A stretch of 64,000 nucleotides of DNA from Marsupella aquatica (lineage: Eukaryota; Plantae; Marchantiophyta): positions 7,939,241 to 8,003,240 of the forward strand of contig OZ316899.1 in assembly GCA_973895155.1 (NCBI GenBank). Direction: 5' to 3'. A program made the translations under genes and the position numbers. The notes under the pieces are model-generated. The model searched no databases and was not told the DNA's origin. It saw nothing but the letters and a program-made list of their open reading frames with translations. This document shows, in pieces, positions 19,280-51,110 of the stretch (position 1 is its first letter; each line of letters opens with the position of its first letter).

Positions 19280-22200
19280 CCGTTATGCGCGATAGGATCC
19301 GGGTTGGGGGCCAAATGTTTAGGGACCAATGCTTGTCCGGGGGTGGTAGGTCTCCAGAAGCATATACGAGGGGAGTGGTGTCTCCTTGGGGGCTAAAGGC
19401 AAGCCGAAGTCGTGAGCTAGCCGCGGCGGTCGTGACACTAAGGGAAATCGCCAAACGGAAATGGCGATATCTTCCCAACGGGAAGTCTGTTGGAGGACTT
19501 CTTAGGTGCATTGGAAAGCTCTCAACTGAGCTCAGCTGGGTCTGGGGGCGCCATGGGTTCTCATGGTTTGCGGGTGTTATCTTGCCCGCTTGCCAAATCC
19601 TGCCGAACAGCAACCAAGCCGTGTTCAGTCTCCCAAGGGAGCTTGCGTTGGGGAGGCAAGGCCAAGTAGGGGAGCTTGCGTTGGGGAGGCAAGGCCAAGT
19701 AGGGGTGGAGGCTGAGTTCCAAGGGTGCTTGGCCCCTAGACCATCAAAGAGGTGAACCGGGAGTGGTTGCTAGAGTCAAGGCCATTCTGGTCCCAGCGTG
19801 TTGGGACAAGCTTGGGACAAGCTTTAGGACAAGCTACGCTAATTAGGCCATGAGCATCTCCTGAGGTCAGGGCGGTCAGTTGGTGATGGATAGGTACGAG
19901 GGGGAACTTGGGCCGTGCCCAAGGAAGGAGCTATTTTGGACAAATAGTGGGCGTGGGTTCTGGTTCCGGCTTATGGCATCGGGAGGACCTATCGCTGACC
20001 TATTTACCGTCTGTTGAGCTTAAATAGGATGCTAGACTTGGCGAGTTCTAGATCCTGAAGGGTTACTTACCGAGGTACTTGGTTGCTTGTGCAGATAGGG
20101 AGGACCGTTGAGTAGCGGTCGTGTTAGAGAGCAAGTGCGACCTCGTATGGGAGGGGCTGTTGGCGGTGCAAGGGGCACTAGTTTACTTGCTCGAGGTATT
20201 CCGTGGAGGCGTTCGGGCACCAGGGGCACTTGGGTGTGAGTGCTGGGATTGGTGAGGGCGCTGGGTGGCGAGGTCCACCACTATTTGTGTGTGCTGGTGT
20301 TGGCTACGATTTGCAGTGCTGGATATGGTGGTTGCTTTTCTGTTTGTTTCCCCCGGCCATGGGGTTTGCGTGGCCCCGTAAAATAATAAAAATTCTAAAA
20401 TGTTTAAAGGAAAACAAGGCGGGCCAGGCATATGGCGGTCGTGAGCCGGGCACGGTCGAGGGTCGCAAAGGGGGAAATACACGGCAACCGACGACTGAAG
20501 GGCCAGGCACGAGACTAAGTGCGTAGAGGGGCAGGCAGTCGGGGGCAGCCAAAGCCATGAAGCGGCTATTGGCAAGAGGCAGGGCACACAAAAGGGAGGG
20601 CGCGGGGTAACGCCGGCGAGAGGGGGAGGGAGAGGGAGAGAAAAGGGCCAGGGTGTGCGCCGGCTGGCGCTGTGCAGACAACCAAGGTCGCGGCTACGAC
20701 CAACAATAGGGGGAGGGGAGGGAGTCGGTAGGAGGGCGGGGCCAGGTAGAACTTGTGTTTGTATACACACAAGGAGTGATTTAAACCCCTTTAAAACCAA
20801 AAATTTGCACCAACAAAGAAATTGGTTGGGTTACTCACAAAGCGACTCTCGTTTACACGAGAAAAAATGACAACTGCCAACAAGAAATGTTGTCAAATTT
20901 CACCAGCACACTCTACAAGCTCAGCAAAGGAAAAAATTCTGTTGCGTCGCACTCTCTCCGCGTCAAGTACCAATCCCAGACTCAAAATGATCACTTCGCC
21001 GTGATCTCTCCTGTAATTAGGTGATTATTCTATAAAAAAAAGTTAAAGTATCAAAATCATAAATTTTTAAATTTTTAAAGTTTTTATAAGACCCTTTAAG
21101 AAAATTTAAGTTAGTATAAGCTCAAATGGGTAAGGATACCATTGGAAGACGTCAAGGCTACGTACTCTGGTTTTCACATATTAGACGTCAAGACGGCAAG
21201 AAGTTGAAAGGAGCTTCAAAAATGAGGTGACGTCCTGGGCGGCCTCCTTGCAGGGATGGCAGGGACGGCCTCCTCACGAAGACGGCAAAGACGGCGCCGG
21301 CTTGGATGGCTTCTACACAGGGACGGCCGGGATGGCACCCATTTTTTGCCAAGGACGGCCGACTCCTTCCGATCCGGCCCGCATGAAAAACTCAAGGATG
21401 TCTTGGACGGCCTCCACATAGGGACGTCCGGGACGTCCACCCCGCCACAACCTTATGTGAAGTCCGCGCCGGCCCAAACCTTGTTCTCCATTTTTCTTTG
21501 AGGGACATCCATGGCGGCCGGCAGTAGGGCGCGAGCTTCAACCCTCAGTGCTCACTCGATGGACCACCATTTGAGCTCATTTCAATTGCTATAGGAGCGC
21601 AGCTGCCTAGAGAATGTTCACCCCGATTTTGAACTGCTATTGATGAGACGTTGAGGAGTATTGGGTCATCGATGCTCTCTGATTTCTTGGAATTGAAGAA
21701 ATTGCAATTTTGAGAGCTTCGCCTGATCAGAGCTCCTTCATTTCTATCTCTTTTCAGTTCATTCCTTCTCCCATAGTAGCGCAGCTACCTTAGATCCTTG
21801 AGATTTCATTCTTGAGTGTCACGTCGTCGGCTGCGGCCTTAACTCAGACTTCAGCTTAGACGGGCACATCCCTCGTAAATCTGAGGGTTCGAGCAAGAAG
21901 GGAAGCACGTAATGCACCTTATTCTCATAAACTAGCGCTAAGTGCGCATACTGCTAAATACAGACACCTCCTAGGTATGGTTTGTGTTCCACCGCCGGAA
22001 TGTACCTTAGTCGATAGCAGGATCGACCCCGGCTTAAGGGCTTCTAAGCCTTCATGCTGTCCGCCTTCGATCCGGATTCGATGATACAGGTCCTCAACCC
22101 GTGCTCGCAACCACTTACCCGCAGGCTGCACCCTGTGCACGTCTCGGGTAGTGCGTTCGGCCTGGCGCTGCCACCCATATACGAGAAACCCACACACATA

Positions 22201-22824
22201 CACGCACACATGCATACAATCTCGATTTACATGAAGGAAAATGATGGGAAAGGATTTTACTACAAAGGGAACATATGCGTACACTTAGTTGACCCGACAG
22301 CCCCGGAATGAATAGGTTCAAGGCCGGGGGTGCACACTACAACGGAGCCCGGCTCCGCACTCGCCCTGTGAGCTTAGTCCTACCCCCTCCCCTTGGTACT
22401 CTTTCATTCCCAGAGGTCGGGACTCCCCGCACATACCGCGGACGCCCAACTCTGCAAATAAAAACCCCCCCCTTGCCTCTACCGAGGGGTGCACTAAATA
22501 CTAAGGGACGAGGGACGGGGTGTCGTCTCGCCGAAGATTCGCTGACTAAGGTCCTAACTAAGCTGACAGTCAGGCCGGAAAACGGCTATATCTTATTAGA
22601 AGATCCTAATCTACGTAGGCTGGACAGCATGGCAGCGCTGCTGTACCTACGGCAGGTGCCTGTCCCAAAAGCCTGACTAAGCCAGTCCTAATCCTAATCT
22701 ATTCCTACTCCGCTGCTAATGCCTGGCACGCTTGCCAGACCCGCCCGAATGGGAGCGGCCATCCCGCTGCCTTCGAAGCCTGTTATTGTCCGCCTTGAGG
22801 AGCTGGACCTGGTCCAGCAGAGAT

Positions 22825-24462
22825 TCATTCTCTCGCCTCGCCGCGTCCGTCTCCTCTGCTGCCTCCTGACATGCCTCCTCCAGCTGCTGTCAGTTTACCC
22901 GCCAGTTGGTCCTGCTTCTCGGCCTCGGTTTGGAGCCGCGCCACCTCGGCCTGCAGCGTGGCTATCTCCGCCGTGTCCCGCTGGGCTCGTTCCTCGGCCT
23001 CCTCCAAGTCTTTCTGCCAGGTGACGGTTTGATTCTTCAAACTGTCAATCTGGTTCCGGAGTCGTGTAATCTCGGCCTCGTTTCCAGCTTTGGCCTGTTC
23101 GGCTAGGGCGGTAAGAGCGTGCGCCTTTGCTAACAACTCATCGGCGGCTGCAACCTTGGGTCGTAGTTGCAGAAGCTCAGCCTCTTGAGCCGCAACTTCG
23201 TTCTTTAGGTACACAGACTCCACCCGGTATCGCTCTATCCTCTTAAGGGCCTCTGACTGGGCCCGACCTGCCTTTACTGCGGCAACCAACTCCTGATTGA
23301 AGAAATGGGCTACCTTCCGGGCCATGAACTCCCCGGTATCCCGGGCAATTTGATGAGAGAAATCTCCCAGAAGCCCATTCAGAAATGTACCCGGTACGAA
23401 GAGTTCCGGGTGGTCCAGGTTGTGCCTGTCCGGAGTTGGGCACGGGCAGACGTCAACACGCGCGGGGGCCGGGGCAGTGACGTCCAGCCCTGGGGACGTA
23501 ACGTTGGAAGGGGCTGGAGTGTCCTCCTGCAGCAATGTCCGGTTCTCCGGAATAGCCACCGGTGGGTCTTTGGGAGATCCGGGCTCGGGTAAGACCTCCG
23601 CCGTACCGACTTCTGTACTTAGCCCGACTTGTTGGGTTGCATCAACGGTTGCGACAACCGACCCATCCAGTACCTCCTCGGTTACGACTACAGCTACTTG
23701 TGGAGGTGGGGTGGGTGAAGCTGGCGTGTCCGCTGGACTTCGGGCCTCGGGTTGGGGCCATCTCTCCAAGGCCGGGAAAACCCACCTAGCTGGGACCAGC
23801 TTTGTAACGTTGACACGGGGAAAGGTTCATCGATCAAACCGGGCGTACCACTCAAGAATGAGCTTGATGTGGCTAGCGAAATACGCCTTCCCGCCAATGT
23901 ACAGCGTCTTCCTTCGCCGCTCCATCTCTTCATGGAATTTCTTAGCGAAGTACGACGTCCACTTCCTAGGTCGATAGTTCTCGACCTGGATAACCTGGGC
24001 GGCGGAGATCTCCCCCCGGGGTTCCATCATGTGGAGGGCGTACCTCTGAAACTCCAGTTGCTCAGCTATCTTGGGGATGAGGCAGGTCTTCATCACGAAC
24101 CCGTTGTCCACTACTCCCTCTGAGGGAAAACTTGAAGATTGGTACTTGGCTCCCTTGCCCCCGGGAGCCCATGATTCGACTCGATGGTCACCTTTGAGTA
24201 ACCCAAAGATCATCCTGAGCCGTTCTTCCGTGAGGGACATACTCCTTCCCCGCAGCCGAGTATGTTGACGCGCGTCGTCATAATTCCTGACGAACTCTGT
24301 CATGTTCTCCCCGTAGTACCTGCAAGTGTTCCAGGGGAGGGAGGCGAGGTGCTCGAATCCCTGAGTCTTCAGGTACACCACATGCTTGGGATGGAGGATG
24401 TTTTTGTGAACGTTTTCCCCCATGCGGTGCATTGTCACCTTGGCTACGGCTACCGTGGCCAA
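22825..24462 (-). pseudogene. E ORF2: plant-transposon accessory domain + Pro-rich linker + coiled coil (one in-frame stop at 23827)
   Basis: ORFs 23827-24462 and 22825-23769 share a frame; homologous to 36760-37480, 45838-47404, 42919-43723 and more distantly 25890-26480. Confidence 0.7.
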
Positions 24463-25292
24463 CGGTAACCCGGATGCAGTGGTGGATTCCTTCCTCGTGA
24501 CTGGCTCGGGGAAGGTGACACTTCCCCATCCTCCCGATCGGGCCTGGGTAGTGCCACTGCCGTTAGTAACGGGCCCGGGTCAGCCATGGTCACCATGTTG
24601 TCTGCCGGGGCCGCTCCTGGGGTCAGAGCAGGGAGTGGGGACGATATAGTGTCGGCCCCCTGAGCGCTTGTTCCTCTGGGCCGCCTGGTCAAGGGTGGGG
24701 TAGCCTCGTCGTCATCGCTAAGATCCACAACGTTGATGACGGAGCGTACTTGTGCTGGTTGGGCGATCGGTGGTGGGGTTTGGCTAGGCTGCGGCTGAGG
24801 CTGAGGCTGAAGCTGAAGCTGAGCCTGAGGTTGAGCCTGAGGTTGAGCCTGAGGTTGCATGGGTACGAGTATGGGTTCGATTGAGTTGGTCATGTTGGTT
24901 GATGGCCGAGTTCCCATGAAGCTCTGTAGGTGCTGGTAGAAGTTCTCCGAAGCGAGTGCAGACGACCTTGTCGAACGGGTAGTGCTGGACTTGCTGTTGA
25001 TGATAGCCCGAACCTGAGCAGGGATGTGGTCAAAGTGATGTCGTTGCAAGTCGATTGTACCCGGGATATTGAAGACCTCGTCCGGAAGCCGAAGCAATGC
25101 TTCCCAAAAACCGATATATTTGTCTCCGTTGAAGAAGTACCCAGATACCTCTGCTGGTCGGTAAAGCTCACTCTGAGATGGGTAGTCAAAGTTAAGGATG
25201 TAGTGGTGTCGTCCTGCTAGGCGGATGGCTCTCTCGTACTTGCGTTCGATTTCGTATCGGCGCGGGTTGGCGTGTTTCAATGAGTCGGCCAA
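24450..25292 (-). CDS. E ORF1, unknown function
   Basis: 280 aa with QP repeats; YFFNGDKYIGFWEALLRLPD matches FFFEGRKYLGFGEALLRLPD in 48657-49229. Confidence 0.6.
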   Translation of the reverse strand: MADSLKHANPRRYEIERKYERAIRLAGRHHYILNFDYPSQSELYRPAEVSGYFFNGDKYIGFWEALLRLPDEVFNIPGTIDLQRHHFDHIPAQVRAIINSKSSTTRSTRSSALASENFYQHLQSFMGTRPSTNMTNSIEPILVPMQPQAQPQAQPQAQLQLQPQPQPQPSQTPPPIAQPAQVRSVINVVDLSDDDEATPPLTRRPRGTSAQGADTISSPLPALTPGAAPADNMVTMADPGPLLTAVALPRPDREDGEVSPSPSQSRGRNPPLHPGYRWPR

Positions 25293-25889
25293 GTGCCTTC
25301 CGGTAGATAGGAACTGCGTCCAGAATCAAATGGCCGAGCTGGAGAGGATCGTGTGCGACATTCAGAGGAGATAGTAGTGGCGACTTAGAGCGAACGAGAG
25401 AGTTGGGGTCGAAGCTGGCGCGTGGACTGATGGACTGGTGCACTACAAAGGGTTGGCTCCCCTTTTATACCTTGAGGGCTCGATCCCCCCACGTCTCCTC
25501 GACGCCCATAGGCTGAACCGCTCATGCTTGTGGTGTACCGGCCACTCCGCCGGTCTGAGTCAGCGCGTGTTAGTGGCCGCTTCTTAAGTACGTTATACGG
25601 ACCCGAGGGAGGGGTCCCTCCACGCTCGTAACCCGGGTGTGCGAATAGCGACCCGCCGCCAGTCCAAACCTGAATTCCCCCTTATTGACTAATGATGTCT
25701 TACCCATAATGATTACCTAAATACTATCGTTATGTTAATAATAGCAGCCTAAGATACTCCTAACGCGCGTGCTAAGCGCAGTTAGACCGAGTCACTCATT
25801 AACCGCCGTACCGGCGGCGTCACATTGAGCCTCCATGCTTAACCGTTTTTAGGAGGAGAGCTCTAGAGCCTTCTCAGATTTTCTGAGCT

Positions 25890-27734
25890 ATGGCCACCAG
25901 AAGCTTACCAATTAGTAAGGCCATTAGGGTGACCTTACCTCCAGGTCCTAAGGCTTACTTTAGACTCCTTAGTAACCTGGTAGAGATGGGCTTGAGTTCC
26001 TTACTTTTTCTTCCTTGGGATATGGTGCATGGGTCCATCATTGTCGATTTTCTTCGTCCACCCCGAGCTGGCACTTTTTGGAGTTCTACTAGAGGTTCAG
26101 CTGATGTGTGTACCACCGCCGTTATTTCTGAGGTATACCAGTTGAGCCAGGAGGGAGAGAGACTTCTCTCTCTTGGAGAGGACTTGACTGTCCCCTATTT
26201 TAGAGGTACCAGGGACCGGAGGTCTGGTTGGAAGATTGATCAGTGCAGGAACCGGGAGTTAGCTCATCTACTCCGATTCCTTGTACCTATCTTTCATCCG
26301 ACCAAACCCACCAGGGCTATGGTTTACTTGACCAGCTCTATCATTGTATCATGGACCGGCAAGAGGAGGATCAACTAGGCCTTAGCTCTTTCGGAGGTGA
26401 TCGCCAAGCAGGTGGTTGTCTTGTCTACTACCGGTGATACCTATCTGACACCCTACTTGGCGCACATTTACTTTTTGAGAGGCTGCTTATTACCAGTGGA
26501 GCTGAGCGATTGGAGGAGGAGAGCGAGACACTTTGAGCTACCTCAGCCAGAGTTAGCAAGAGAGTTGACTCCACCACCAATGACATCTCCGAGACCCCCT
26601 CCAGTGGAGCAGACGACAGCACCAGATCTACCAGGGATGACTTCTTCCTCTTTTGTTGCTTCCACTTCTTATCCGTCATGGACTGATTTTGTTGGTGATG
26701 CTGAGCGACTAGCTAGTGTGGCTGGTTTCAACCAGCATTTGGTAGATGAGGCCACTAGACTCTTGAGTTGTACCCCTCTACAGTTACTTGACTCTATTTG
26801 TGCTTTGCTTTCCGAGTCTCGTACCGTACCACCCCCTCATGTTTCACCCCTTGCACCTTCACCACAACCTGATCACCCTATGGATGTGGATGAGCCGGAG
26901 CTACCTATTGCTGACCCTTCACTCCCTCCTCCATCCTCACCTACACCCCCTCTACCTGATCCCATTCTTTCCCCTATCCCTCCTACATTTTCACCTGAGC
27001 ACCCTCCATCTCCTTTACCCCCTTCACCAGTACCCCCTCCAGATCCATTTTCCTCTATTGAGGATACCACCCTATCACCCCTTGATAATTCATTTCCCTC
27101 TCCTACCATGGAAGGAGATGAACCTATTCCTGAGCCTATTCCCGAGATTGAGCCTGAGCCTGAGCCTGAGACTATAGAGCCTCCCAGTATACCATTTATA
27201 GCTCCTACTCCTTTGATGTCTCAGCCTCCTATTGTCTCTTCTGTTGCCAACATTGAGCCTCTTTTTGTCTTTCCCGCCCAGTTCGATAGGATGATTACGT
27301 CACTCATCGACGCACGCACTCCTCTTGCACCTCCTTTACCTCCACTTATGTTTGGTTGTGAGTCTTTTCCTTTTCCACACACCTACGACATGGTTCCGAT
27401 TTCTTGTGGTATTCTATGGCTACCTATCGACAAGCTGAGATTACCCACGATTGAGACTCCTGACCTTTGGAGTTGGGTTTATCATTGTAGAAAGGTCATA
27501 GCACCTTTCCCTCTTCCAGCTCCAGACATTCCATGGCCATCAGATTACTTTGTTTGGATCGGACCGGATGGACATCCCATCCGGAAGACCAGTGAGCCTC
27601 GTTTGATTCGTTACCGTGAGGACCTTTTCCGTCGACAGTATTTGAAGGGACAAAGGACCAAAGGGAAGATAGCCCTTGGTTATGTAGCTCGCCTCCCTCT
27701 ACTTGTAGTCGACCCTCCTCCTATTACAGTATGA
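25890..27734 (+). pseudogene. Accessory ORF inside the 5' LTR of D (one in-frame TAG at 26376)
   Basis: ORFs 25890-26378 and 26397-27734 are in frame; L.LPW...F...RG...ISEVYQL...GW....C....LRFL...YL..YLAHIY domain followed by a Pro/Glu-rich tract. Confidence 0.7.
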
Positions 27735-28777
27735 GATTAGTATTTTATTTTGTAGACTTTTACTTAGCTCTGACCATTTGACTATCCCTTAGTCAAAGTT
27801 GACTTTTACTTTACTTAGTTTAGACTTAGGCATGTCTCTTCATTCTCCTTAGCCCGTGGGCGATCTCATGCACTTAGTGTGATACCAGTCTCATTTTGAG
27901 ACAGTGTGGATAGTTATTTGCATCTCCTCATCTTGGAGTTTTGTCCCTTGTACGTGTAATGCAATTTTGCAAGGAAGATTTGCATACCTTGGAATTTGAT
28001 TACTTGTGCTAGGAGTCTACCCCTCCTTCGTATGGTAATGCATGTTGCAATTACCGTAAGAAGTAAAATCCATAAAAATACAGTTTGTGGAATGTATTAG
28101 AAGATCCGTTGGTCGGTGCCTAATCCAAACTACAACATTTGTTGTCCATTTATGTATTTATATGAAGGACTTATCTTGGAAGATAAGTATTACATGAAAT
28201 CAAGAAATAGAAATCTATATGATTAAGAAGTAGCGACATTCTTAATTCACGGATTTGAAGTACCATTGTGGTATACTGAATGTGCATTAGTTTTTCTTTG
28301 GAATTGCGCATCGCTGAAGAAGGAAACATGTTGCCGGCATTTTAATGACACACTACTATACACACAATCCAAAACTTATCTTGGGTTTTGTGAGCATAGA
28401 CACTTCTTAAACTTAGATTTATGATGGAAACCTAGAGAGCAGTTATAGCAAGGTTATGTTTGACTTATCAACGTCTCAAATAATGCCATAGCTCTTTCTT
28501 AAGACATGGTGACGAAGCTAAATATTGCTAAACTATACCTCTAAAAGCTCTAAGATTCTGTTATACAGCAAATGTCACTTTGTTCTTATTTTATTAATTC
28601 CTTGTGTTTTGTTTAAGATTCTATTTTTCTTATAGATGTTGAGTACCATCTCTAAACCACTCAAAACACTTTAAAACATCTTTTCATCCCATTCTTGTTC
28701 TCCCACAGGAACGAACACCGAGTTTTTAGCATATATTCGATGATATTTGCTTTTGTTAGCATACGACATACGATTTT

Positions 28778-28795
28778 TGGCGCCACTGTCGGGAA
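28778..28795 (+). promoter_or_regulatory. tRNA primer-binding site of element D (Asp-like, tentative)
   Basis: TGGCGCCACTGTCGGGAA following TACG-ATTTT (decayed TACA LTR end near 28772). Confidence 0.7.
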
Positions 28796-28976
28796 ACAGG
28801 TCAGGGATGATTTGACAAGCTGGCAGTGAATGCCAAACTATCAATTCTTGGAATTCAAGGAGGTTGAAGGAAGAGGGAGTTAGATATAGTGAATTAGGGT
28901 TGCAAACCTATTTCATGGTGTTTGATTCTCTTTAGAATTGAATCTTGCTGAATTTTAAGAAAAGAAAGGAGAGACA

Positions 28977-30149
28977 TTGGAGATCAAAAACATGCCAAGG
29001 AGAAATCGACCTCAGAAAAGGGAGCGAGCCCAAATCAAGTCACGAGAAAATCAACGTCACAATATTATCACCACCACTACGCATTCTAGGGCGACAATCG
29101 TGAAAAGTCAAAGAGGAAGTGCAAGTGGAGGAAGTTATTTTTGGGGTGGCGAATTGATTAAAGTTGATTCATGGGATACGAATGTTTTCCTTGATTGTTT
29201 ATTGATTTTCAGGCGAGTTTCAGACGGAAGATTCGAATTGGTGGAAGCCACGCAAGACAATGAATTTGATAAGGAATTGATTCCTATATTGTTAAAGGAC
29301 CACCATATTGAGGAGGAAAGTTTAGATTTGGAGATTGAGAATGAATTGAAGAACGCTTTGGCAATCTTGAAGGGAGATCCTTTGTGGAGACATCAGCTTG
29401 ATAATGTGCTGAAGGACTTCTATGGAAACTCCAATGTACTTCTACAAGAGGAAAAGCCTGTTATGAGATTGAGTAGAAAGGTGTTAATTGCAACCTTGGA
29501 CCACTACGCTAGGAATGGGTGGATCTTAATTAAGTGGAAGGAGTTGAGTTGGGGAAAAGCATGTTTCAATGGGTTTCCGATTTGCCAGAAATTTGTGACA
29601 AGACAGACATATTAGTGTTGAAGAGATTGTGGATTGATGATCGTGAATACAAGCTATTACCTATCGAGGAGGAAAATGATTTAGAATTTGTTCTAAGAAA
29701 GAATGAGCGTCATAGTTTTTGGGCGACTGATGCAGAGCAGTTAAGAATCAAGGAAAGTTTGGCCATATTGCATGGACTTGGAGATTTGTGGATAGATGCA
29801 CTTGATGTGCTAAACAATCTTTTGAATGGGTATCAGACCTCAACGGTTAACGAAGAATTGAACAATGGATTCTTTCAAATAGAGTTCTAACTTGGTAGAT
29901 AAGATGCCGAGATCTCAACCAAGATCACTAGGCACCTTCAGAATACAGAATATGAGAAATACCTATTTGAGAACAAGAGTACTTAGCCTAAGAGGAAGAA
30001 GAGGAATTCATTGGTTATCCATTACTTGGTGGCAAGGAGACCAACTTCATTTAGTGATTTTGAGATTAAATGGACGAGTTGCAGGAGAGAGATATGTTGT
30101 CATTTCCATTTCAGATTTAGCCCATGCTCTCATCCAGGACCAGAGATGA
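28977..30149 (+). pseudogene. Broken upstream ORF(s) of element D, unknown function
   Basis: Three abutting ORFs right after the PBS; no gag motif recognised. Confidence 0.4.
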
Positions 30150-30315
30150 AGAAGATGAGGGAGTGCTTAATGACTGCCTTATGATGAACCATTGATTGGC
30201 TTGTGAAGGAAAATTCTGCCTCCAATTTTTGATTTGAATTCTAACATCAGATTTGGATTCCTCGGAAGATGGCATGTTAAATTGATATAAAATTGAGCCA
30301 AAACTGATAAGGGAA

Positions 30316-30933: not shown

Positions 30934-30971
30934 AGCTTGTGAGGACACGACGCAGTTTGGGGGGAGACCTA

Positions 30972-38458: not shown

Positions 38459-40809
38459 AGTAGTGGACCTAGCCACCCAGCGCCCTCACCAATCCTAGCA
38501 CTCACACCTAAGTGCCCCTGGTGCCCGAACGCCTCCACATAATACCTCGAGCAAGCACCCCAGTGCCCCTTGCACCGCCAGCGGCCCCTCCCATACAAAG
38601 CCGCACTTGCTCTCCAACACGACCGCTACTCAATAGTCCTCACTGTCTGCACAAGCAACCAAGCACCTCGGTAAGTAACCCTTCAGGATCTAGAACTCGC
38701 CAAGTCTAGCATCCTAACTCAAGCTCAACAGACATTGGTAAATAGGTCAGCGATAGGTCCTTCTGATGCCATAAGTCGGAACCATAACCCGCGCCCATTG
38801 TTCGTCTAGAACAGCTCCTTCCTTGGGCGCGGTCCGGGTTCCCCCTTGTACCTATCCATCACCAATTGACCGCCCTGACCCCAGGACATGCTCATGGCCC
38901 AAGTAGCATAGCTTGTCCTAAAGCTTGTCCCAACACGTCGGGACCAGAATGGCCCCGACTCTAGCAACCAACTCCCGATTTGCCTCACTAATGGTCTAGG
39001 GGCCAAACACTCTTGGAACTCAACCTCCACACCTACTTGGCCTTGCCTCCCCAACGTAAGCTCCCTTGGGAGCCCCTTGGGAGACTAAACACGGTTTGGC
39101 TGCTGTTTGGCAGGATTTGGCAAGCGGACGAGTTAACACCCGTAAACCTTGATAACCCATGGTTCCCCTAGACCCAGATGATCTCAGGAGGTCATAGCCC
39201 TTGTCAAGAGCTTTCCAACGCACCCAAGAAGTCCTCCAACGGACTTCCCGTTGAGAAGATATTGTCATTTCTGTTTGACGGTTTCCTTTAGTGTCGCGAC
39301 CGCCACGGCTCACGACTTTGGCTCGCCCTTAGCCCCCAGGGAGACACCACTCCCCTCATATATGCTTTTGGAGACTTGCCACCCCCGGACCAGCTTTGGT
39401 CCCTAAACATTTGGCCCCCAACCCAAATCCTATCGCGCATAATGGGCGCGCCACCAACTAGCAACGCTGTCGTGCCGAAAGATTTCGGATCAGGAATGGC
39501 TTTTATAGGGGATGATGGGCGAGGCCTCCCGGTTGGGTTGCGTGCATGCTGACTCAGAGGGGCTGCTTGGTTGGATGGATTGAGGTTTGGTGATTGGATG
39601 ACTCGTCATCACCAGGTTTGGTGTTTGGGTGAGTCACCAGGCTTGGAGTTTGGATGAGCCTCGCTGCTGGCAGCTGGCTCAGGCTGGATGGTTGGGTTTC
39701 CGATGCTACTTAAGACTTGAGCCTCGGCTCATTGAGGTTGGCGTTTATCTATTGAGATCTGTTGAGTTGCGCTCTGTGAGTTTCGCTCCGTTCTGCGGAA
39801 CTCGACTGTTGTGCGGCAGTTTTGGAGTTCTGAGTGAGTTTTCGATCCAGGTGGGGAGTTTTTGATCCAGGCGGGGAATTTCTTGAGTCTGGAGTCTCGT
39901 TGATCCAGGCGGGGATTTCTCAATTTTGGAGTCTTGTCGATCCAGGCGAGGATTTCTCGAGTTTGGAGCCTTGTTGGTCCAGGCCCGAGTTCCGTGCGAG
40001 CTGTTTTAGACTAGTGGAGTAGCTAGTCAAGTTTTTGGTTTTGTGAGCTAAGGAGGATAGTTTTTCCGTCAGATTTTTGAGTAGTTAGTCACTCGAGGAG
40101 TTCTACTCGACAAGTTAGAGGTAGCGGCCCACCGTAGGGCCAACTACCAGACTCTTGCGGGCAACCTTACTCGAGGGCACCTATTGTAACCTTTGTGAGA
40201 AAAGTAAAAAATATAAAGGAGTGAGAGTTTGCTCCGAAAAGTGCTTGTCACCTATCCCAATCGCAGCCATAAACGCGTAGTTTGCCCAAGGAGCCCCTAA
40301 CTTTAAGTCCTCGCGACAACGCCCATAACTTTCTCGTTAGGCATCTGCAAGCGGAGTGTCTTACCCCGTTGTGATCGGGCCAATCTAGTGCTCATGCCTA
40401 GGCCCTCAGGTCTCATTGCCGCTCGGGGCCCCTGATCGGCCCAACCTAGATCGGGGCATAACTTGCACCCCAAGCGTCCATTGCCCATGACGTCAACTCC
40501 ATGGGCCTTGGGCCCAAGAGGAGCTCATACTCAAGCCCTCAGAACTCAAAGTCCATCCGGAGATCCGGACGGTCGTCCTTGAGCCCGGCCCATTTCCCCT
40601 TGACCTAACTAGCTCTCAACTAGTCCAAGTCCTTAGTGTGTGTCACCAGCTTGGCTCCTTGCCTTCGCTAGCACCACGTCTCATTGCCCACAAGTCTCCT
40701 CATGCTAAGTCCTCCCCGGATGGCCTATTCGGGCCTGGACCATAAGGGAGCTTGGCGTTGGAGTCAGCGACGCCGGAGCTAAGTGTTAAGGTAGTTGAGT
40801 TCCGCGACT
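38459..40809. mobile_element. Family C unit, copy 3, interrupted by a B solo LTR
   Basis: AGTAGTGGACC...GTTCCGCGACT; colinear with copies 1 and 2. Confidence 0.85.
39468..40318 (+). mobile_element. Solo LTR of family B (851 bp)
   Basis: Homologous to 11762-12573; perfect 4-bp TSD ACGC. Confidence 0.95.
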
Positions 40810-40914
40810 GCGGCCAATGTAGGCTTCCCGTCCTCTGACAGGTTACCCACTCCTGGCCGGGTCAACCCATCTTTGGCATGTCCGGGCTCCACCCTTACTT
40901 CAGCCTTGGCTTCC

Positions 40915-43900
40915 TCAACTTGTGCCTGTTTGGCGCACTTCTGCCACCCCGACTTCTGTCTGTGTGGCTTTTGCCTGTGGGGGTTCCACCCCTATGGCTT
41001 TTGTACTGTCCTTCCCGGCATCGGCTACCCTGCCGTAGTGGTCCTCCTCAAAGGCTTGTTCTATGAGTTGGGTTGTCTTGTCCTCCCAAGGTTGCGGTTG
41101 ATACCGATCAATGGTTGGCAACTTTGAGTCAGTGCCTGTCATGGCCTCCCCCAACCAGTCTTCTTGGCCTACCTCCAAGACTGCTTCCTTGACAGCCACA
41201 ACCTCGCACAAGGCCGGTGCCATGCTCTCCACCTCAGCCACAGTGGCCTAACAAATGGTGTGGCTCCCTGACCCAGAAGGCTTCCACTTTCTGTCCTTCC
41301 CCTCCCAAGCAGCTAGTGCCTTCCCCTTGCCACTTACTTCCAGCAAAGGTGAGGGTACCACAGCTTGTCGCTTGGTCAGTACCACGCCCTGCCACCCTAT
41401 TGCTGCCACCGGGGGTCCACTTGTTGCGGCCAGCCGATTTAGCTCCTCAGACTGCTTCTTCCATCGCTCAGCTTGGTTGTCTGTCCGCCTCTGCAGATTT
41501 TCCATCTTCTGGGTGGCGTCCTCCAATTCCACCAGGGTCTCGTCTAAATCCCCACGGGCTTGCTCCAACTCTACTAGGTTCTCGTCCAACTCCTTCTGTA
41601 AGGCCGCCCTTTCCTCTTGGGTTGCTTTCAGCTCCGCATTGAGCTCATGGACGACATCAAAGTAACTTGATCTTATTCATTTTTTTGTAGGTTTGATCAA
41701 GCATGTCATCCTTCTTACGCAGCTCGGCTTGAAAGTTGGCCGACAGGTCCTCAAGGTCTTCTTTTAACTTGTCGATGCCCCTGTAGGTCTCATCAAGTTT
41801 GCCTTTCTTCTGATGGAGGGCCTTGCGGCATTCTTTGATCTCATCCTTCAGTGCCCGCTCCTTCCTCTAAGCCTCGGTCATGGCTTTGTTGTAGGCCGTT
41901 ATGTGAGTTGCCTCTGCCTTCTTCAGCTCCTACTTCCACTTCTCCTTCTCCTTAAGGGCTTTGGCCAAATCTTCTTGAGTGTGGGCTAGTTGCCCCTGCA
42001 TGATGCTTATTTCATGCTTCCTAACTCGTAGCTCGTCCTGGGCCTACTTGGCCGCCTTTAAATCTTCGGCCTCGGCTTCCTTCTCTCTTAGCCGCCGGAT
42101 GACTTCCTCCTTCTTCATCCTCTCCAAGGCCAGTGCGTCCTCCAACCGGATTTTCTCCGACATCTCTTTGTGGACGAAAGGCCCCGTCTCCAATTCTACC
42201 CCAAAGATGTCAAGGGCGAGTATCCCGCACATCCTCCCATACTCCAGGGCTCTGGAACGTGCATAGGTGGAGTGGTTAGGAGATGTTGGCATCTCCCAAC
42301 ACGGCCTTCTTTCCCAAGCCGCCCTCCATATCTCATCAAACGTGGGCAAAGACCCGGCTTGAGTCCCTGCGAGATGCCAAATGTCCTCCGGTCATCCTCC
42401 ACCTGGCAAATCCTTCTTCTTGGCCAGGGTTGCTTCCTCCCGGTCACTCAATCGCTGCTGCAACTCGTGATCAGCCTGTTGTCTCTCATTGTAATTTGGA
42501 GGAGGTATGTCTGATGGGGAAGACTCTGGGCTCTTCTGATGTTGTGGATCCCCATGCACCACTCTTGGAAGTGTGGGGATAAAATGGCCGCAGGTCCGCA
42601 CCCCTGGTACTGAGCAATCCAACCCGTAACCCAAGTCCTCGTGGTATTCCTCCACGTGCTCCCCTGCTTTTGGGCATCCTGGTGCTTGCTGATCCTCTCT
42701 AGGACTAGCCGCAAACCCGGCATCCTGCCTGGTACTATGCATGCGTGCGGCTCTTCCAACTCCCGCACCCGGCCTTTGCTTTCCTTTTCAGGATTGGGAA
42801 CCCTGGGTCCATGTCCCTCGGATTCTGAACTGGAGTCTCCTACGTACCTCCGTACTCCCGACTCTTTTTCCGGCCTGCTTCTCTTCATGGCCCCAACCAT
42901 GGGTTCTCCTCTAGCGGTTCATGCGGTGCCCGCTACTAGTGCCTCTGGTGCTACTGCCGCCTTCTCCTTCTTCAGTATCTGTAGAAGGTTCTGTATGGCC
43001 GGTTGTTGCATCGGCCTAGGTTTTGGCGTCTGCCAAAAGATTGGAGCTATTGTGGGGCTGCCGGGTGGGTCGGGCTTCTTTGCTGTTGGCTTTGGCTCAA
43101 ACTCCTCTTCTGGCGCTCTTGCCTGTAGGGGAAGGATTGGGGCAAAGATTTGACTTCGGGCATACCGGCACAACAACGGCATATGATAACCAAGCCAGGA
43201 CACGCTCCCTTGGCTAATCACTTGTTGCTCCTCCTTCAATATCTTCCTTAGTTGGTTGAGGAGGTACCCGTTGTAGTCTTGGCTTGGGTCTAGCCTCTCT
43301 GCCACATATACCCGTGCTTTGCCAATCTCCGGCCTCGACAAGTTACAATGCATTGTCACCCGCAAGAAATCGATCATTTCTCGAATATGCAGGTTAGTGC
43401 AAGTGTTGCGGAAGAAGCCATTCTTTGTTGATGGCCCGGGGAACAATCTAAACTCCTTGTCCGACAAGTTCTTCCGGGTTTCTACCTTAGTTAGCCTTGT
43501 TGCCCATCGGCAAGCCAAATACTTTGGCAATCACGTTGGAGGTGAGATAGAAGTCCCTCTCGTAGATCTTGATTGAGCTGGACTCGTGGTCCCATGATCC
43601 CACAAATTCCAGTAAGTCTGACTCTGGCACCTCTGGCTTCAGCCACGGCAATCTAACAAAGGTCTCTAAGCTTGATCCGGCCATAAGCCTTGATACTTTT
43701 TGGTCTGCATGGTTGTGAAACATGCATCCTCATCTTGTGCAAAATGTAGCTGCACTGCCGGTGGTATCATTGTCGCCCAGCCCTTCCAAGTGTCATCTTG
43801 GGTAGGGACGACATTTACTAGGTCAACTTCTGGTTCCTCGGCTCCCTCCTCTCTCTGGTTCCCTTGTTTGGCCGGCCTTCTTGATATTGCTGACCTCGTC

Positions 43901-44403
43901 CTCTTGGCTGGTGTGTTTTCTTCGTTGTTGGCCATCTTTCTCTTCATTTTAGCCGCTCCGGACGATTCTCCCAACACTGTTGCTTTCATCCACGCCGCCG
44001 TGCAGCCCTTCAGGTCCCAATGTTTGTCGCTGCAATTGTTGGTGGCCTGCCGGATGCCAAAAATTTTGTTGTCTTGAATTAGAAGATCATTGAGCTCATT
44101 GGCAGTAGGTGTCCACAAGAATTCAGCCTTGATGAATTCTCCTCCTAAGAAGGCCAACTTCTGCAATTCCCATAGCCAAGCAAGCTCCTGTTGCTCACGG
44201 GCTGCTCTTTCTGATTCTTCCTCCTCGTAGGTCCCAACGTACTCACTTGCCCGTTTGAACAGGCATCCCCAGAAATGTGCCACTTGATTGATGTTGCTCA
44301 TTCCCTCCTCTGTCGTTGCTTGGTAGCTGCTTATGCCCCCATGTTCTCCTTTGTAACTAACAGTCGTTGGCTTCTGTTTGCACTTTGTTTGATCAAGGTG
44401 CAA
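40915..44403 (-). pseudogene. G ORF cassette: ORF1, accessory domain (42919-43723) and long coiled coil (about 41250-42200)
   Basis: FVRLPW..LLEFVGSWD..IAKVFGLP..NGFFRNTC..IDFLR..WLGYH matches E ORF2; E/K/A-rich heptads; multiple stops. Confidence 0.65.
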
Positions 44404-45040
44404 ATGTGAGCCTCCTTTACCCCCCTTCCGGCCTGCGCTACTCGTCTCATTTACTGATTACTGGCAGTAGCCAACATTAGCGTGCCTTAACCCTAATCGC
44501 AACCCTTAGTGGCCGTTACTCCTCTTACTCCCGGCCTTGGCTCGGGTTCCATGTATACCCTTAAGTGTTTATGGTTCTATCGTCTTTTTCTCCTTATACT
44601 AGTGGATTTATTGTATACCACCCAGTTTTACCTTTTACACAGCCCAGTGATTCCTGGCTAGGCATCACATCTTCCTACTCCAAGATTGGTTCCTGGGGTG
44701 GCTCATGGAGGGGGACATCTCCCCCTCTTCTCTATCTGGCGGTGGTATTGCTACCGCCATTAGAATTGGTGTCGGGGCTGCAACCATCATCACGTTGTCT
44801 ACCGGGGCCGCCTCCCGGGTTTGGGCTTGTGGGGACGGCGATGTGTTACCCATCCCAGGTTGGTGCATCCCTGGTGGTTTCTAGACAAGAGGTGGAGGAA
44901 CCTCCTCATCCTCTGAGCTCAGGTTCACCGCGTTCACCACGGATTGTACCCGAGCGGGGAGTGCAACCAGTGGTGGGGAGCGGCTTGAGGGTGCCCGGGG
45001 TGGGGTCTGCGCCTGTGCACTGGCCGTCGATGTTGCTGGA

Positions 45041-48000
45041 TGTCGCGCCGCTAAGTCGGGCCTTAAATCCAGTTTAGTTCTATGGGGCGACCTCGACCAC
45101 CAGTAAGGGTGAGGGTTCGGGCAAGGAGGTGTGTAGTGGCCATGATTAGCCCTAAGTCGGGCCAAATCGATATACTTATTGGTATAATATTTACGCAACT
45201 TGTACTGGTCATAGGTATATTTGTTTTCCACCGCTGGAATATTCTCACAGTTAGTGACTCGGACTAACTCCCGGCTTGGGGCTTTCAAGCCATCGACGCG
45301 ACAGAACCTTGTGACATGCAATGGGTGGCAATCCCTACCATTAGTCCGCACCCGGTACGTCCCTTGAAATGGCGCCTTTGCCCAGACAAAGCATGCCCCA
45401 ACACCAATTACTCGTGGAGACATTAGAGGGAGAAGACTACATTTACTCAGCGAAGAATCAGGTTACATAGTTGACTCGACTTCTAAGGGGGTCAGCGGGC
45501 CCAACGGCAGTCGATGCCCAGTCTCTACGAGGCCCCGCCTTGCACTTGCCCAACAAGCTCAACTCTGGCTCTCACTCCTTAGTGCACTCTGACCCTGCTC
45601 AGGCCGGGACTTCCCGTGCCTCGCCTTTCCTTGCGCTGAGATAACTAAGCCTTCTCCCCTTCCCCACAGAGGGAGGGGAAGCCTAAATACCATGGTTGCA
45701 AAAAGGAACCGAAAGATTCTTCCTACTACGCCGCTACTCGTCGCCTAATGACAGTATTATGTCGTTAAGCCTAATCAAAAAGATGCCGCTGACTCAACTG
45801 CCTTGCACGCCTGCTCCCACCCTTCGCTAACCACCCCTTACGTGTGTGTTGTGGTCGGACCAGGGTTTGTCCCCCTGTCGGGGTGAGACCTCAAGCCGCC
45901 TTGATCAGAGGTGGGCCTAGGTCTGGCCCGCTGGAGGACTAGCAGAGTAACGCGGTCCTGCAAGGCCTTGTTATCCCGGACCGCCTCCTCTGCCTTGTTT
46001 GCCGCCTCATCGGCCTCTGCTTGGAGCCGCGCTATGTCCAGATTGAGCTGGTTAATGGAGTCATAATGGGTCTGGTCCTGCGCCAGCAATTTATCCCGTT
46101 CGGCGGATAGACTAGCCACCTGCTGAGCTGCCTGTAGGAATTGGTTGTTGAGGTCGGTCAAGCTGGTAACCCGAGCCGAGGATTCTGAGCGCAACTGGAG
46201 CACGGTGTTGTCCAGTTTCTTGAGATCCGCTTGCGCCCCGCTCAACTCCTGGGTTAGTCCGTCCCGCTGTTTGATGGTGCGGACTAACTCCTCACGACGG
46301 GTAGTGGCCTCCTCCTCCAGGTGTTCTACCAACATTTGGAGGCGCCTGATCTTGTTCCCCTTTGCCATGAGCTCTTCCTCCAAGCGGCTTACGATCTGTG
46401 GTTGGTGTTCTAACATGAACAAGGCTGGTTGAAAGTACGCCGAAACTTGTTGTCCAATGTACGTCGCCAGCTCCCCGGACAGAGTCTGACTAAACTTTTG
46501 GACCAGGTCGTAGGCCATGGTTCCCGGGGCTACCTGGTAGTCCTCCATCCTCTTGGGTACCGGCGGTTCCTCGGGCGGGGTAGTGAGCTCCTCCGTAGTC
46601 TGCAATGGGGAGGGGAAGGTTTCTTCAGGTGGTGGAGGGATTGGAGGTGGTTGTACCGGGGGTAGCAACGGCTCGACAGGAGGGGGCGGTGGAATTTCAA
46701 CCCAGGGAGGTGACGGAGTATTAGTCATGGCCTCTGGCTCGGGGTTTGCTCGAGGCGAGGTAGTCCGCTCCCTCAGGGTAGCCTCCTCCGTAGCGGGGGT
46801 GACCTTAGTCGGGGCTGAGGTGGCCATATTCTTTCCCCTGGCCTCCCACCGTGCCTTGTACCAGGCAAGGATGATGGCGATATGACTTCCCAGGTAAGTT
46901 TTCCCCCCGACAACCATACCTCCCTAAGCTCGCTTAAGCTCCCCCGAGAACCTACGGTAAAAGAATTCCAGTTTCGCCGCTTGAACTGTTCCACTTGGAC
47001 GATCGTGTAGAGTGAAATCTCAGATTGTGGCTCAATCATGTGTAGGGTAGTCCGTATGAAGTTAAGCCGCTCCATACAGATTAAGTTGGTGCACGACCCC
47101 TGCTTGTATCCGTTGTTTGTCTTACCCTCGGGTTTGAAGTGCCGAGGTGTATACTCCTTATCCCAAATTCGGAGTTCAACCGACACTGGCCCGGTTGGCA
47201 GGCAGAATATCTGTGCTAGCCGATGCTCCGTGAGTGATAAGGTCTGCCCTGAAACCTTGGTGGTTGATGCGTCAGTATCAAAATTGGAGATGAACTCACA
47301 AATCTCCTTCGGCCCGGCTGCGCACAGTCTCCATAGCAAGTGAGCGAACTACGCCAACTGATGCTCCTTGAGATAGTTCGCATGGTCAAGTTTTTTGATT
47401 GCAATCCAGACTACCTCGGGGACGCGGATTACCTGTAATAAGTTAGACTTTGGATTATCCGCGGGCCGTCGGGTTTGGTTGGTTGGTGGGTTCGTCGGGG
47501 CAGGTGCAGGGGTGGCATTGGTTCACGTTGTTGGTTTGGGGGCCGGCATTGTTCTTGCCTACTTCCGAGAACGCTGCTCAAGCTGCGGACTAACACGCTC
47601 AAAACCCGAGGAATACTCGGTGTTGTTCACTGGACGGACTTGGGACTGGTTTGGTGGTACGCCGGTGGTCATCGGCTAAGGGGCTGGGGGTGGTGTCGGG
47701 GTAGCCATATTCCAGTTGAAGGCGTTGGAGCTTTCCCCGGGGAACGTAAGGTTACGCGTCGCTTCCCGTTGTCTACTGATGTCTTCTTCACGTTTCTCGG
47801 CTGCAATCTGCTGGTCGATGTATCCCAAAATCTTGTCAAACTTTGTTGGAGTCAGTCTCTGGCTGCCCCTTAGCCTAAAGAACTTTGCGGGGACTTCAAG
47901 AATCGCCTCTGCCATCGATCTGAACCCTTCCTCGTTGATATATAGCTCGGTGATGTAATCTCACAGCTCGTTGTAACTGGAATCCCTGGTGATGGCCGTC

Positions 48001-48704
48001 TTCTCACAGTTAACTTGTGCTACTTTGGCCACCAGCTTCGCGTATCTTCGTTCGTAAGCGGCTTTCTTGGGGCAAGAGTACCAGTAAGTCTCGGAGAGTT
48101 TAGCACCAACCTCGCCAAACAAGGTCCAAAATCCCAAGGCTGTAAGGGTCATACTAACCTCTGTAGTCTGGTTCGTCGAGTCCGCATTCCCGCCCGATCA
48201 GTCCGCTTGCTGGTGGAGGCCTTACTCGCCCTGACTAAATCTTGCCACAATCCGCTCTTATTCCTTGATAATTTCCTTGTAAAGGTCAGCTTGATTCGAG
48301 CCAAAGGCGAGAGTGAATGGCAGCATCCTCGAATCCCGAAAGGTAGAAATGAGCAAATGGCCCACAGCGCCATCGACTCCGCTCTTATAGGGGTGCCAGG
48401 GTGAGCTCGAGCATGAGAGGGCAAGGCCATTTTGGTCATTGATAATGAGCTAAAGTTGGCGTCTTGGTCCAAGCATGATTCTCCTAACAGATTTTTACTC
48501 CGCCGCTGCCACCGTACCTCGGTCGACCGTAATAATCCTCCTCCTTAATTTGTAATCATTCGGTCAACTAACCTACTCCTAATCTATTCATAATGGCAAA
48601 GACGGCTATTCATGCTATTCTACGCTACGGCTACGGTCCTAATGACCGTATAAATCCTAATCTATGACCTGCGTTCGGTTAAGTGACACGTTGCCCGTGT
48701 CACA
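45041..48704 (-). mobile_element. 3.66-kb solo-LTR-like unit F carrying ORFs
   Basis: TGTCGCG...GTGTCACA, perfect TSD CTGGA (45036-45040, 48705-48709), minus-strand TATAAG at 48384-48389. Confidence 0.85.
45838..47404 (-). pseudogene. F ORF2: accessory domain + Pro-rich linker + coiled coil (frameshifted)
   Basis: EFISNFD..LSLTEHRLAQIFCLP..NGY..GGKTYLGSHIAIILAWY versus E GGKAYFASHIKLILEWY. Confidence 0.7.
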
Positions 48705-51110
48705 CTGGAGGAGGTGCCATAGGTCCCAACATTCCATCCAAGAAGCCAAGCAATGATGGTCCATCCGGGTTTGGGCTATTACCAAACCGATAGTCAAGGA
48801 AGGACTGCACCCGAGCGGGTATGTCATCAAAGTGATGGTGTTGTAAGTCCACCATTCTTGGATCTTGAAGACCTTGTCCGGGAGTCGGAGGAGTGCTTCT
48901 CCAAAGCCGAGGTACTTTCTTCCCTCAAAGAAGAACTCGGCTATCTTGTCATCCCGAAAATACTTGCTCTCAAATGGAAGGTTAAGGTCGTCGAACGCCC
49001 ATTCAAATGTATAAGCCGTTTGTACTGCCTTTTGGCTTTGTACTTGTGTGGGTTGTGCCTGGCGAGCAAGGCTGCAAGGTGGTTGCCAATGCTTAAGAAT
49101 TGAAACCAAAAGCAAATGGCAGAATTGGACATAACCATGACAGACATATGGCAAGGTGTGCAAGATTGCTAAGGGGGAAAAGGAGGAGCTGGGATCAAAG
49201 TTGGCGCAAGGAGTGAACTGGTGATTCATAGGAGGGAAAGAGCTTGCCTTTTTTACCCTTGCGGGGCGTCAACCAATCGGCTCCTCTTGCTCTAATAGGC
49301 CGAGTCCCTCACGCCCAAAGTGTATTGTCCACCCCTCAGGTCCGGGTCAGGGTGTGCTAGAGGGCCGCCTCCAGATCAATTATATGGATCCAAGGTGGAG
49401 GGCCATAATGCGCTCCTAATCCGGCGGTACGTCTGGCGTAGCGCTGCCAGCCCGAGCGTGAATGCTCATTATTTACTAAACTTGTCCTAAACATCATGAC
49501 TAGCTAATTTGTGTCACTATGCTAATAACTATGGATTCCTAAGTCTACTTTGTACATGCTTAGCACGGGTTAAGCCGTATTATTCATTACCAGTCGTGCT
49601 TGCGGTGTCACAGTCTGCAATTGGAAGTGCTTGCCCCCAATTTCTCTCCGGTGCTGAAGTTGTCTCGCATGGTGTGGTTATGGTAAACTCTCTTGCTCTT
49701 CTTCATTCCATTGAGTTCGTTGTTCAATGGGCTGATCTTTTGCTCAATGGGAAAATCACTTGTGGTATTCGCCGTCCAATCATTTTTCTCTATGGCTGAC
49801 TGAAAACCTACTTTGGCCTCGTGGGGGGGTCACTATATGGAGGGCCATACATCACGTGCGACGTTTTAGGGTTTGACCCCCCTAACTTATAAGTGAATTT
49901 TTTTTTGCAAAATCCTTTCTTTCTTTAATTGCCATTTTGTATTAAAAAACCCCTAAAAACTTTAAAGAAAGTATTATTTACCATTAAATAGGCCTATGTG
50001 TTCTTTAAAGTTGATCAGTCAATAAAACATGCCCTATGTGTTCTTCCACCAAACTTTGGAAGTCTTTCTTCACACCCATTTAAATGGGCCTATACTTCAT
50101 CGCACGTGATGTGCCACTTCCGTGGAAGTGACCCCCCCAAGACTTTGGCAGAAGCTTCACGATTCAAAATCGTAGTCTACAAGGGAATTGTGAGCCTTCT
50201 TCTTTGCAAGGTACATGTATTTCCCTCTTCCCGATCATGTGATGGCTGGCTGGCTGGCCGCGAGGTGCTAACAACAGAGTGGAAAGGAAATGCTGCTCCA
50301 ATTTCTTGCCTTCAATTTTTTTTGGGTGCATCTCCTATTGTAGAAGAAAGCTTATTGTCCTCCTTTGAGAGAAATTGAGATGCCACGCTCGCACTGAAGC
50401 TTGCCACCACTCTTTGTACATGGTACAAGGTTTGTTGTTGCTACCTATGGTCCTCCGCTCCGCTGCTTTGTTGCTTCCTTGCTGTGCAACCGTCTCTGCT
50501 GGATTAGGTTTTCAGCGTCAGCCATGTTCTCGACTTCCATGATGCCTGAGCTCCATCATCAAACTCATGGTCTAATCCTCTTTGGTGGTGCTTATGGTGG
50601 AAGCTATATTGGTTTTGGTTAATAAATTTACATTGCCTTTGGCTTATAGTTGTTCTACTGAAATTTCTTTGTCTTGAGAATTTTCTTTGTGTATCTTTAC
50701 TGCTATCATTGTTTACGCTAGTCAAAGTATCAGCTTTTCTTGCAAATTTCCGCTTCAATGCCTGCACTTTGGGATGGCAAATTTGGCTGCGTGGCTGAAT
50801 GGCAATCTCTTATAGATGTCATTGTTTGTTTTGTATTAAAGTGGACAACTTGAGCATACCAATGCCATAGATGTGATCCTTATGCAGTGCAGGGGTTAGC
50901 GGTTTTGTATATAAGTTTGCTTGATTGTCTTTGGTTGAGATCCACTCCATAGTAATTTGAACTCCATAATTTGAACCCCATATTTTGAACGCATATAAAA
51001 TAGTTTGGGGGCAATGTGTTTAATTGATCGCCTTTAATAAAGCCCTGTGCTATTTGGTCCACATAGGGTCTATTGTCTTCATATATTGTAGTAGGATCCT
51101 TGATAAGTTG

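Follow-up and report, generated by a model that had tools for sequence, protein, structure and literature searches.

VANC-type anti-silencing is known from dicot DNA transposons only: VANC21, encoded by the Arabidopsis MuDR-type transposon VANDAL21, binds dense family-specific motifs and strips methylation in trans (available sections of PMC5735166). Plant Ty3/gypsy retrotransposons also carry extra open reading frames (ORFs), which are without an established function. Here we describe a locus in Marsupella aquatica (Marchantiophyta) at which these two subjects may meet. The window, as we call the whole 64,000-nucleotide stretch analysed (GCA_973895155.1, contig OZ316899.1, positions 7,939,241 to 8,003,240), contains units named E, F, G/E2 and H that appear to be solo long terminal repeats (LTRs), each with remains of a gene of ~850 codons whose conserved domain is predicted to adopt a VANC21-like fold. 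Taken as a whole, the reading that these are Ty3/gypsy solo LTRs with one VANC21-like gene in the U3, acting against silencing in trans, is in our judgement evenly poised between right and wrong; its parts differ in strength and are graded where they are discussed.

Boundaries and dispersal of units E and F

Units E and F were first noticed in a first-pass annotation made from the sequence, and their TG..CA ends, their target-site duplications (TSDs; Table 1), the lack of terminal direct repeats in a self-comparison of the window and the lack of gag and pol were all reproduced. The ORFs of E and F have no Pfam match to gag, protease, reverse transcriptase (RT), RNase H or integrase, and match weakly to coiled-coil families only. 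The first TATA box, which had been placed about 320-360 bp from one end, was measured at +356 in E and at +315 in F, on the minus strand in both. Across the whole window, a 5-bp duplication accompanies 2 of the 592 pairs of LTR-like starts and ends at a spacing of 3-5.5 kb (0.58 expected), and these two are E and F. Additionally, the ends of both units are set independently of the TSD, those of E by an empty site and a family end in public contigs, and those of F by unit G, which resumes on either side of it.

Dispersal of E was followed in Logan sequencing runs, of which 4 of the 7 listed were examined (at most four samples and at most two studies, one possibly being that from which the window itself derives). 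Each of the four runs covered E completely (30 of 30 bins), with 4225-11887 contigs per run. Other copies terminate at 21817 and then pass into unrelated flanks (1, 8, 5 and 5 contigs per run), the flank agreement beyond 21817 being 0.46-0.53 in the three runs with several contigs. In all four runs the repeat that hosts E was also found uninterrupted, continuing from 21816 to the sequence after the right TSD. E is a clean insertion and belongs to a family of many copies whose end is fixed. Among the best 15 of 48 joints within E, none removes the gene, and their depth does not exceed 284, whereas the bin sums range from thousands up to hundreds of thousands. E carries A/T where the family carries G/C at 27 of the 40 best-supported differences (best 40 of 333), an excess that would be expected of a methylated dead copy, and other family contigs differ from E at its frameshift. 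No relative of the E domain was found in viral or metagenome contigs, and the exact 25-base LTR-end pattern had no match in metagenome contigs.

Two elements of the window that do bear gag and pol, at 11762-19279 (812-bp LTRs) and 2604-10632, were considered as parents of E, F, G and H; they have no DNA in common with these units and are therefore not their parents.

Evidence that the units are probable LTRs, and likely position of the gene

Unit I, a gene-less LTR, begins TGTGACAC immediately after a polypurine tract (PPT), ends GTGACA and lacks the VANC-like gene. Over their last ~650 bp, E and F can be aligned to each other and to unit I (E-values of 1e-24 for F-I and 3e-6 for E-I), and the two local scores against unit I, 232 and 226, compare with shuffled maxima of 89 and 96. 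Because this stretch is homologous to a PPT-adjacent LTR, E and F are likely solo LTRs; the same alignment fixes the orientation, the gene lying in sense within the unit. We regard it as very probable that E, F, G/E2 and H are LTRs left behind by LTR-LTR recombination. The first-pass proposal of solo LTRs with a gene inside the LTR has thus gained support from the fixed ends, the TSDs, unit I, a distant homolog inside a repeat that stands before a tRNA primer site, and purifying selection, with no parent element seen.

In E, a TATTTAG motif ~325 bp 3′ of the stop codon is matched by the TATA box of unit I (score 59, shuffled maximum 33.5), and gene-less unit I thereby suggests that the gene precedes the TATA of the LTR itself. 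No alignment was obtained among E, F, I and H over their 5′ parts. Since a TATA-like box lies 3′ of the gene, and since E, F and I cannot be aligned at the 5′ side, as is expected of U3, the gene would be placed in U3; on balance we favor a long, variable U3 in which the gene sits with a promoter of its own, ahead of an ordinary TATA-R-U5.

Unit I also contains, at 32830-33160 and within its likely U3, an array of nine copies of the 7-mer CGGGTTA (shuffled maximum 5). The array is a candidate target of a trans-acting factor, though unit I itself is without the gene.

E lies inside another repeat, likely a 5′ LTR, which carries a distant homolog of the gene. This host segment ends at an Athila-type primer site (tRNA-Asp type) at 28778, 5 bp past the repeat end; its internal remnant ends with an integrase C-terminus and then a PPT ~20 bp after the integrase stop, and the sequence 3′ of that PPT repeats the start of the host segment. 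Profiles of E-type and host-type proteins (39 and 54 sequences, built apart) match in hhalign at 98.7% with an E-value of 3e-16; the E and host domains are not significantly similar in pairwise BLAST, so that the homology rests on profiles. The host element as a whole (21012-31734) has TCTCC on both sides and ~290-bp inverted ends, its right end being an inverted, deleted LTR start, and is possibly an aberrant complementary DNA (cDNA) integrated by two U3 ends.

Nested units G/E2 and H

The first-pass annotation had listed G and E2 as separate diverged units with the layout of E and F. The layout stands, and the separateness does not. G (49612-48710 plus 45035-44670) aligns to E 25824-24485 and E2 (37516-36751) aligns to E 24496-23731; as the two tile adjoining stretches of E, they are, by alignment, the two portions of a single E-like unit, which F and H interrupt and which has lost its 3′ part. 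A longer G delimited by its TSD (40963-49612) was rejected, its start not being LTR-like and its course cutting through H.

H is a separate and more distant unit. It is flanked by an imperfect TSD, TCTTC/TCTTA (four of five bases equal), and contains an N-terminal domain as in E, a VANC-like domain at 43729-43147 and a coiled coil at 41676-41251. A second H-type start occurs at 63747, the region 63747-64000 being inserted at the end of an ORF at 63081-63758. Domain identity across the four units (E, F, G/E2 and H) is 22-75% which, together with the distant host-type family, suggests an old and repeatedly kept arrangement.

A single gene with a conserved domain

ORF1 and ORF2 of the first-pass annotation, described there as separate, are on sequence grounds one gene of ~850 codons, broken in E and F, because both domains share one frame in F (with five stops) and because P0141, a natural relative of 906 amino acids (aa), combines the ORF1 domain with the conserved domain and the coiled coil in a single polypeptide. 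The ORF1 domain of P0141 matches that of E with an E-value of 4e-15 and that of F with 5e-13. The gene of E therefore spans both ORFs, from 25361 to 22825, and is interrupted three times, by stops close to its start and near 23828 and by a frameshift near 24490. All gene copies in the window are disrupted by stops or frameshifts and are dead.

The conserved ~200-aa domain, the Pro-rich linker and the coiled coil are all present as first noted. Over 199 codons of this domain, E and E2 differ with a ratio of nonsynonymous to synonymous substitution rates (dN/dS) of 0.10 (bootstrap 0.05-0.16), 91 of the 143 differences falling at third positions, compared with 1.2-1.7 in the control frames (n=3). 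This comparison, proposed at first pass, shows the conserved domain to be under purifying selection; between E and F, dN/dS is saturated.

Among 1.84 billion proteins, a profile of the window domains retrieved 133 at E<=0.001. One apparent relative, P0076, proved to be a false Fn3 match and was dropped. Calypogeia fissa accounts for 7 of the 20 relatives looked up and for all 14 matches to the N-terminal domain, two of which were already in the query. The N-terminal domain itself matches no Pfam family, and its model, a helical bundle (predicted local distance difference test, pLDDT, 82), has no structural match at Z>=5 or E<=0.001.

Predicted fold and possible function

Folded with 113 sequences, the conserved domain gave a model with a pLDDT of 95.8. 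Against 48,161 PDB representatives, VANC21 was the sole chain at Z>=5 (Z 7.8, the next 2.5), with 191 aligned positions, a root-mean-square deviation of 4.0 and 12% identity. VANC21 was also the best Foldseek match, a weak one (probability 0.82, TM 0.52). The domain is therefore predicted to have a VANC21-like core fold. By sequence, it has no Pfam match up to an E-value of 10, so no DUF1985 membership, and the window proteins have no match to PF20167, PF03078, PF04195 or PF10536. One of the 51 relatives scanned matches PF20167 (Transposase_32) at 21 bits and E 3e-4, the cut-off being 45, and the Atlas leads for one homologue, PF20167 and PF03078, are both below 0.9. PDB sequence searches with two profiles returned nothing meaningful, and BFVD gave no match at E<=0.001.

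The first-pass annotation had proposed an anti-silencing or targeting factor; the fold match to VANC21 agrees with it, and the role itself is a prediction. VANC21 has its fold in common with MAIN/PMD proteins; available sections of PMC13547354 describe coiled-coil oligomers of VANC and Athila proteins in models, and available sections of bioRxiv 2024.09.27.615353 mention a retrotransposon-encoded PMD-A. We think it fairly likely that the protein binds DNA and oligomerizes through its coiled coil; that it is a family-specific DNA-binding anti-silencing factor is a prediction that we would hold at just short of an even call.

How the gene might have entered U3

In reverse transcription, U3 is formed from the stretch between the PPT and the 3′ end of the RNA, and both LTRs receive a copy of it. 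According to the available parts of PMC7264820 and PMC6317226, the extra ORFs of Athila and Tat elements are usually found after pol and before the tract. If plus-strand priming were to start upstream of such an accessory gene, the gene would enter U3 and would therefore be copied into both LTRs, and we consider it reasonably probable that it was brought into U3 in this way. The gene would then have its own TATA near the LTR start, with the TATA for genomic RNA behind the gene, and LTR-LTR recombination would leave a solo LTR that keeps the promoter, the gene and the LTR end signals. The protein may bind the DNA of its own family, oligomerize through its coiled coil and counter host silencing in trans.

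Weighing the alternatives

A number of observations weigh against this reading and are best considered along with the alternatives. No direct pair of E/F/H-type repeats around gag-pol was seen in the window or in public contigs; the consensus of a primer-binding site (PBS) was not found among the 19 loose ends at 21817, a junction that assembled contigs can miss; and the host element has a truncated 3′ repeat that is without the gene and terminates with the LTR start copied in inverted orientation. The second motif, TATTTAG in both E and F, is a non-canonical box, and the F-I match at this motif is at shuffle level (39.5 versus 40). The first TATA box is canonical and stands 315-356 bp from the 5′ end, the usual length of a U3. 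It is thus conceivable that the units are solo LTRs with the gene in R/U5 behind a single promoter, giving a leader and a strong-stop DNA of ~3.6 kb, with gag expressed by splicing or internal initiation. We consider this unlikely, since the TATA of gene-less LTR I falls at the position homologous to the second motif of E and conservation between E, F and I is confined to the parts 3′ of it. About equally improbable, in our view, is that the protein has another job: tethering integration, nuclear import or dampening its own family as MAIN-like proteins do. The fold is common to the host silencing proteins MAIN/MAIL (available sections of PMC13547354 and bioRxiv 2024.09.27.615353), the N-terminal domain has no counterpart found, and no dense short-motif arrays, which are the hallmark of VANC targets, rise above shuffles in the non-coding DNA of E, F, G and H. 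The main reading is also weakened by the moderate strength of the resemblance to VANC21 (Foldseek E 0.21, Z under 8, identity of 10-12%). Nevertheless, the sole solved match is an anti-silencing protein, MAIL1 and MAIN counteract Polycomb silencing (available sections of bioRxiv 2024.09.27.615353), and early action in trans would fit a gene that has a promoter to itself.

Two further alternatives concern the nature of the units, and we rate both far lower. The units could be non-autonomous DNA transposons mobilized by an integrase-related transposase (Ginger/GingerRoot-like) and carrying a VANC-like cargo gene in the manner of VANDALs; their TG..CA ends agree with this, the ends of E form an imperfect terminal inverted repeat (TIR) of ~25 bp, the host of E has its long inverted ends and a TSD, and GingerRoot occurs in bryophytes (PMC6839031). 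However, GingerRoot has TIRs of 100-150 bp and a 6-bp TSD (PMC6839031), whereas E and F have a 5-bp TSD and no such TIR, and the homology of their 3′ parts to PPT-adjacent LTR I leaves this alternative very improbable. The least credible is one that the first-pass annotation itself had raised, namely that the units arose by deletion, the two halves of a short LTR having been joined to either side of an extra ORF from the element's interior. Gene-less relative I does share the 3′ part, and extra ORFs are normally inside the element (available parts of PMC7264820). Against it, E has whole-length coverage in many copies and a fixed end, with no gene-removing joint among the best 15 of 48; the same layout recurs in four units that have diverged to 22-75% protein identity; no PBS or PPT motif lies inside the units; and a deletion derivative of this kind could not be copied again by reverse transcription.

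Feature coordinates and other elements of the window

Table 1. Coordinates, in window numbering, of the gene-bearing units, their parts and related repeats
Feature	Position	Strand	Remarks
Unit E, likely solo LTR	21817..25824	-	4008 bp, TG..CA, TSD TTGAG
E first TATA box, likely promoter of the LTR gene	25463..25469	-	+356; 108 bp 5′ of ATG at 25361
E gene	22825..25361	-	~845 codons, ATG 25361; ORF1+ORF2 of the first-pass annotation
N-terminal helical domain of E	24999..25361	-	~120 aa; kept in E, G, F, H and relatives
Conserved domain of E, predicted VANC21-like fold	23830..24435	-	~200 aa; dN/dS 0.10 vs E2
C-terminal coiled-coil region of E	22882..23256	-	after Pro-rich linker; weak sub-cut-off coiled-coil Pfam matches
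E second TATA-like motif, likely start of genomic RNA (inferred)	22494..22500	-	3′ of gene; homologous to unit I TATA
Conserved E 3′ part, likely R-U5	21817..22500	-	homology among E, F, I
Unit F, likely solo LTR, inserted in G	45041..48704	-	3664 bp, TG..CA, TSD CTGGA
F gene	45838..48152	-	~770 codons; frameshift near 46960
F second TATA-like motif	45689-45683	-	same motif as E
G, 5′ part of E-like unit	48710..49612	-	62% to E
G, middle part between F and H	44670..45035	-	64% to E
E2, continuation of G past H, with VANC-like domain	36751..37519	-	74% to E
Unit H, distant gene-bearing likely solo LTR	37520..44669	-	4798 bp without nested repeat 38458-40809
Unit I, gene-less LTR	32534..34852	+	directly 3′ of polypurine tract 32521-32533; TATA at 33505
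Host repeat of E, likely 5′ LTR	21012..28773	+	~3.75 kb without E; distant homolog gene 25887-27734

Several other elements were observed in the window. Repeat family B (~1.5 kb) has AGT...ACT rather than TG...CA ends and occurs at 11250-20288, 32149-36176 and 38458-40809; the first copy, which a gypsy element splits, is bordered by a 5-bp duplication (ATTTG), and the other two are without matching duplications. Gypsy family A (11762-19279 and 39468-40318) has 812-bp LTRs, a primer site at 12575 and a degenerate gag-pol, and two of its copies are inserted in B repeats within ~10 bp of the same position. In the gypsy element at 600-10632, RT is preceded by a region resembling a cytosine methyltransferase and integrase is followed by a PHD finger; the repeats of this element are split, 600-961 equalling 10095-10456 and 9917-10092 equalling 10457-10632. 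Degenerate copia-like pol fragments lie on the minus strand at 51136-53142, with RT/RNase H motifs recognized by eye, and 58962-63758 holds possible DNA-transposon ORFs without a Pfam match.

Implications

A VANC-fold gene inside an LTR, if confirmed, would connect VANC proteins to the extra ORFs of gypsy elements and suggest a function for the latter. A solo LTR would then be a whole gene instead of a non-coding scar. Such gene-bearing solo LTRs would be annotated as host genes, the named relatives being listed as 'unnamed protein product' of Calypogeia fissa, and would escape LTR finders tuned to short repeats. A broader hypothesis, which we consider doubtful, is that an old bryophyte gypsy group keeps a VANC-fold anti-silencing gene in U3, each solo LTR forming a self-contained, family-specific anti-silencing gene; LTR-LTR recombination, the host's main route of deletion, would then leave the counter-defense behind, and VANC-type anti-silencing in retroelements would be older than the dicot VANDALs.

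Comparison with known systems

VANC21 (PDB 9LNK/9LNJ; available sections of PMC5735166) resembles the predicted protein in core fold, in being an accessory protein, and in its linkers and coiled coil. It differs in sequence (10-12% identity), and the protein described here likely belongs to an LTR retrotransposon, has an extra N-terminal domain and has no motif arrays found; in contrast to VANDALs, E and F are without a transposase and have a 5-bp TSD. They differ from GingerRoot and Ginger, too, in lacking 100-150 bp TIRs, 6-bp or 4-bp TSDs and a transposase. The ORFs of Athila, Tat, Ogre and Retand elements (PF03078, PF10536, PF04195 and PF20167; PMC6317226, PMC11963269 and PMC7264820, available sections) are likewise gypsy accessory ORFs, with a plant-transposon domain and an SMC-like coil, but are located either between gag and an LTR or downstream of pol, ahead of the 3′ LTR, whereas here the whole gene is inside the repeat unit. 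The host element of E has its tRNA-Asp-type PBS 5 bp past the repeat end, as in Diaspora/Calypso.

With regard to the LTRs themselves, Retrosat2, RIRE3 and RIRE8 (PMC3485330), Ogre and BAGY-1 (cited in PMC1142308) share LTRs of 3-5 kb, many of them solo, and an extra ORF; that ORF is outside the LTR, and the available parts of these sources do not report coding LTRs. The gene sag of mouse mammary tumor virus (MMTV)-like elements does survive in solo LTRs, 490 of 527 sag contigs being without other retroviral genes (available sections of PMC4667437), but belongs to an animal retrovirus and encodes a small, immune-acting, unrelated protein, whereas the ~2.5-kb gene described here fills about two-thirds of the repeat. 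In the literature listings searched, with subscription papers and bioRxiv supplements outside their scope, no plant retrotransposon was described as having a whole gene inside its LTR. Gypsy accessory ORFs, VANC-like folds, LTRs of 3-5 kb and a gene within solo LTRs are thus each known singly; what would be new is their combination, with a VANC-fold gene of ~850 codons. To these the window adds four diverged units, a distant host-type family, a single-gene architecture and a new N-terminal domain.

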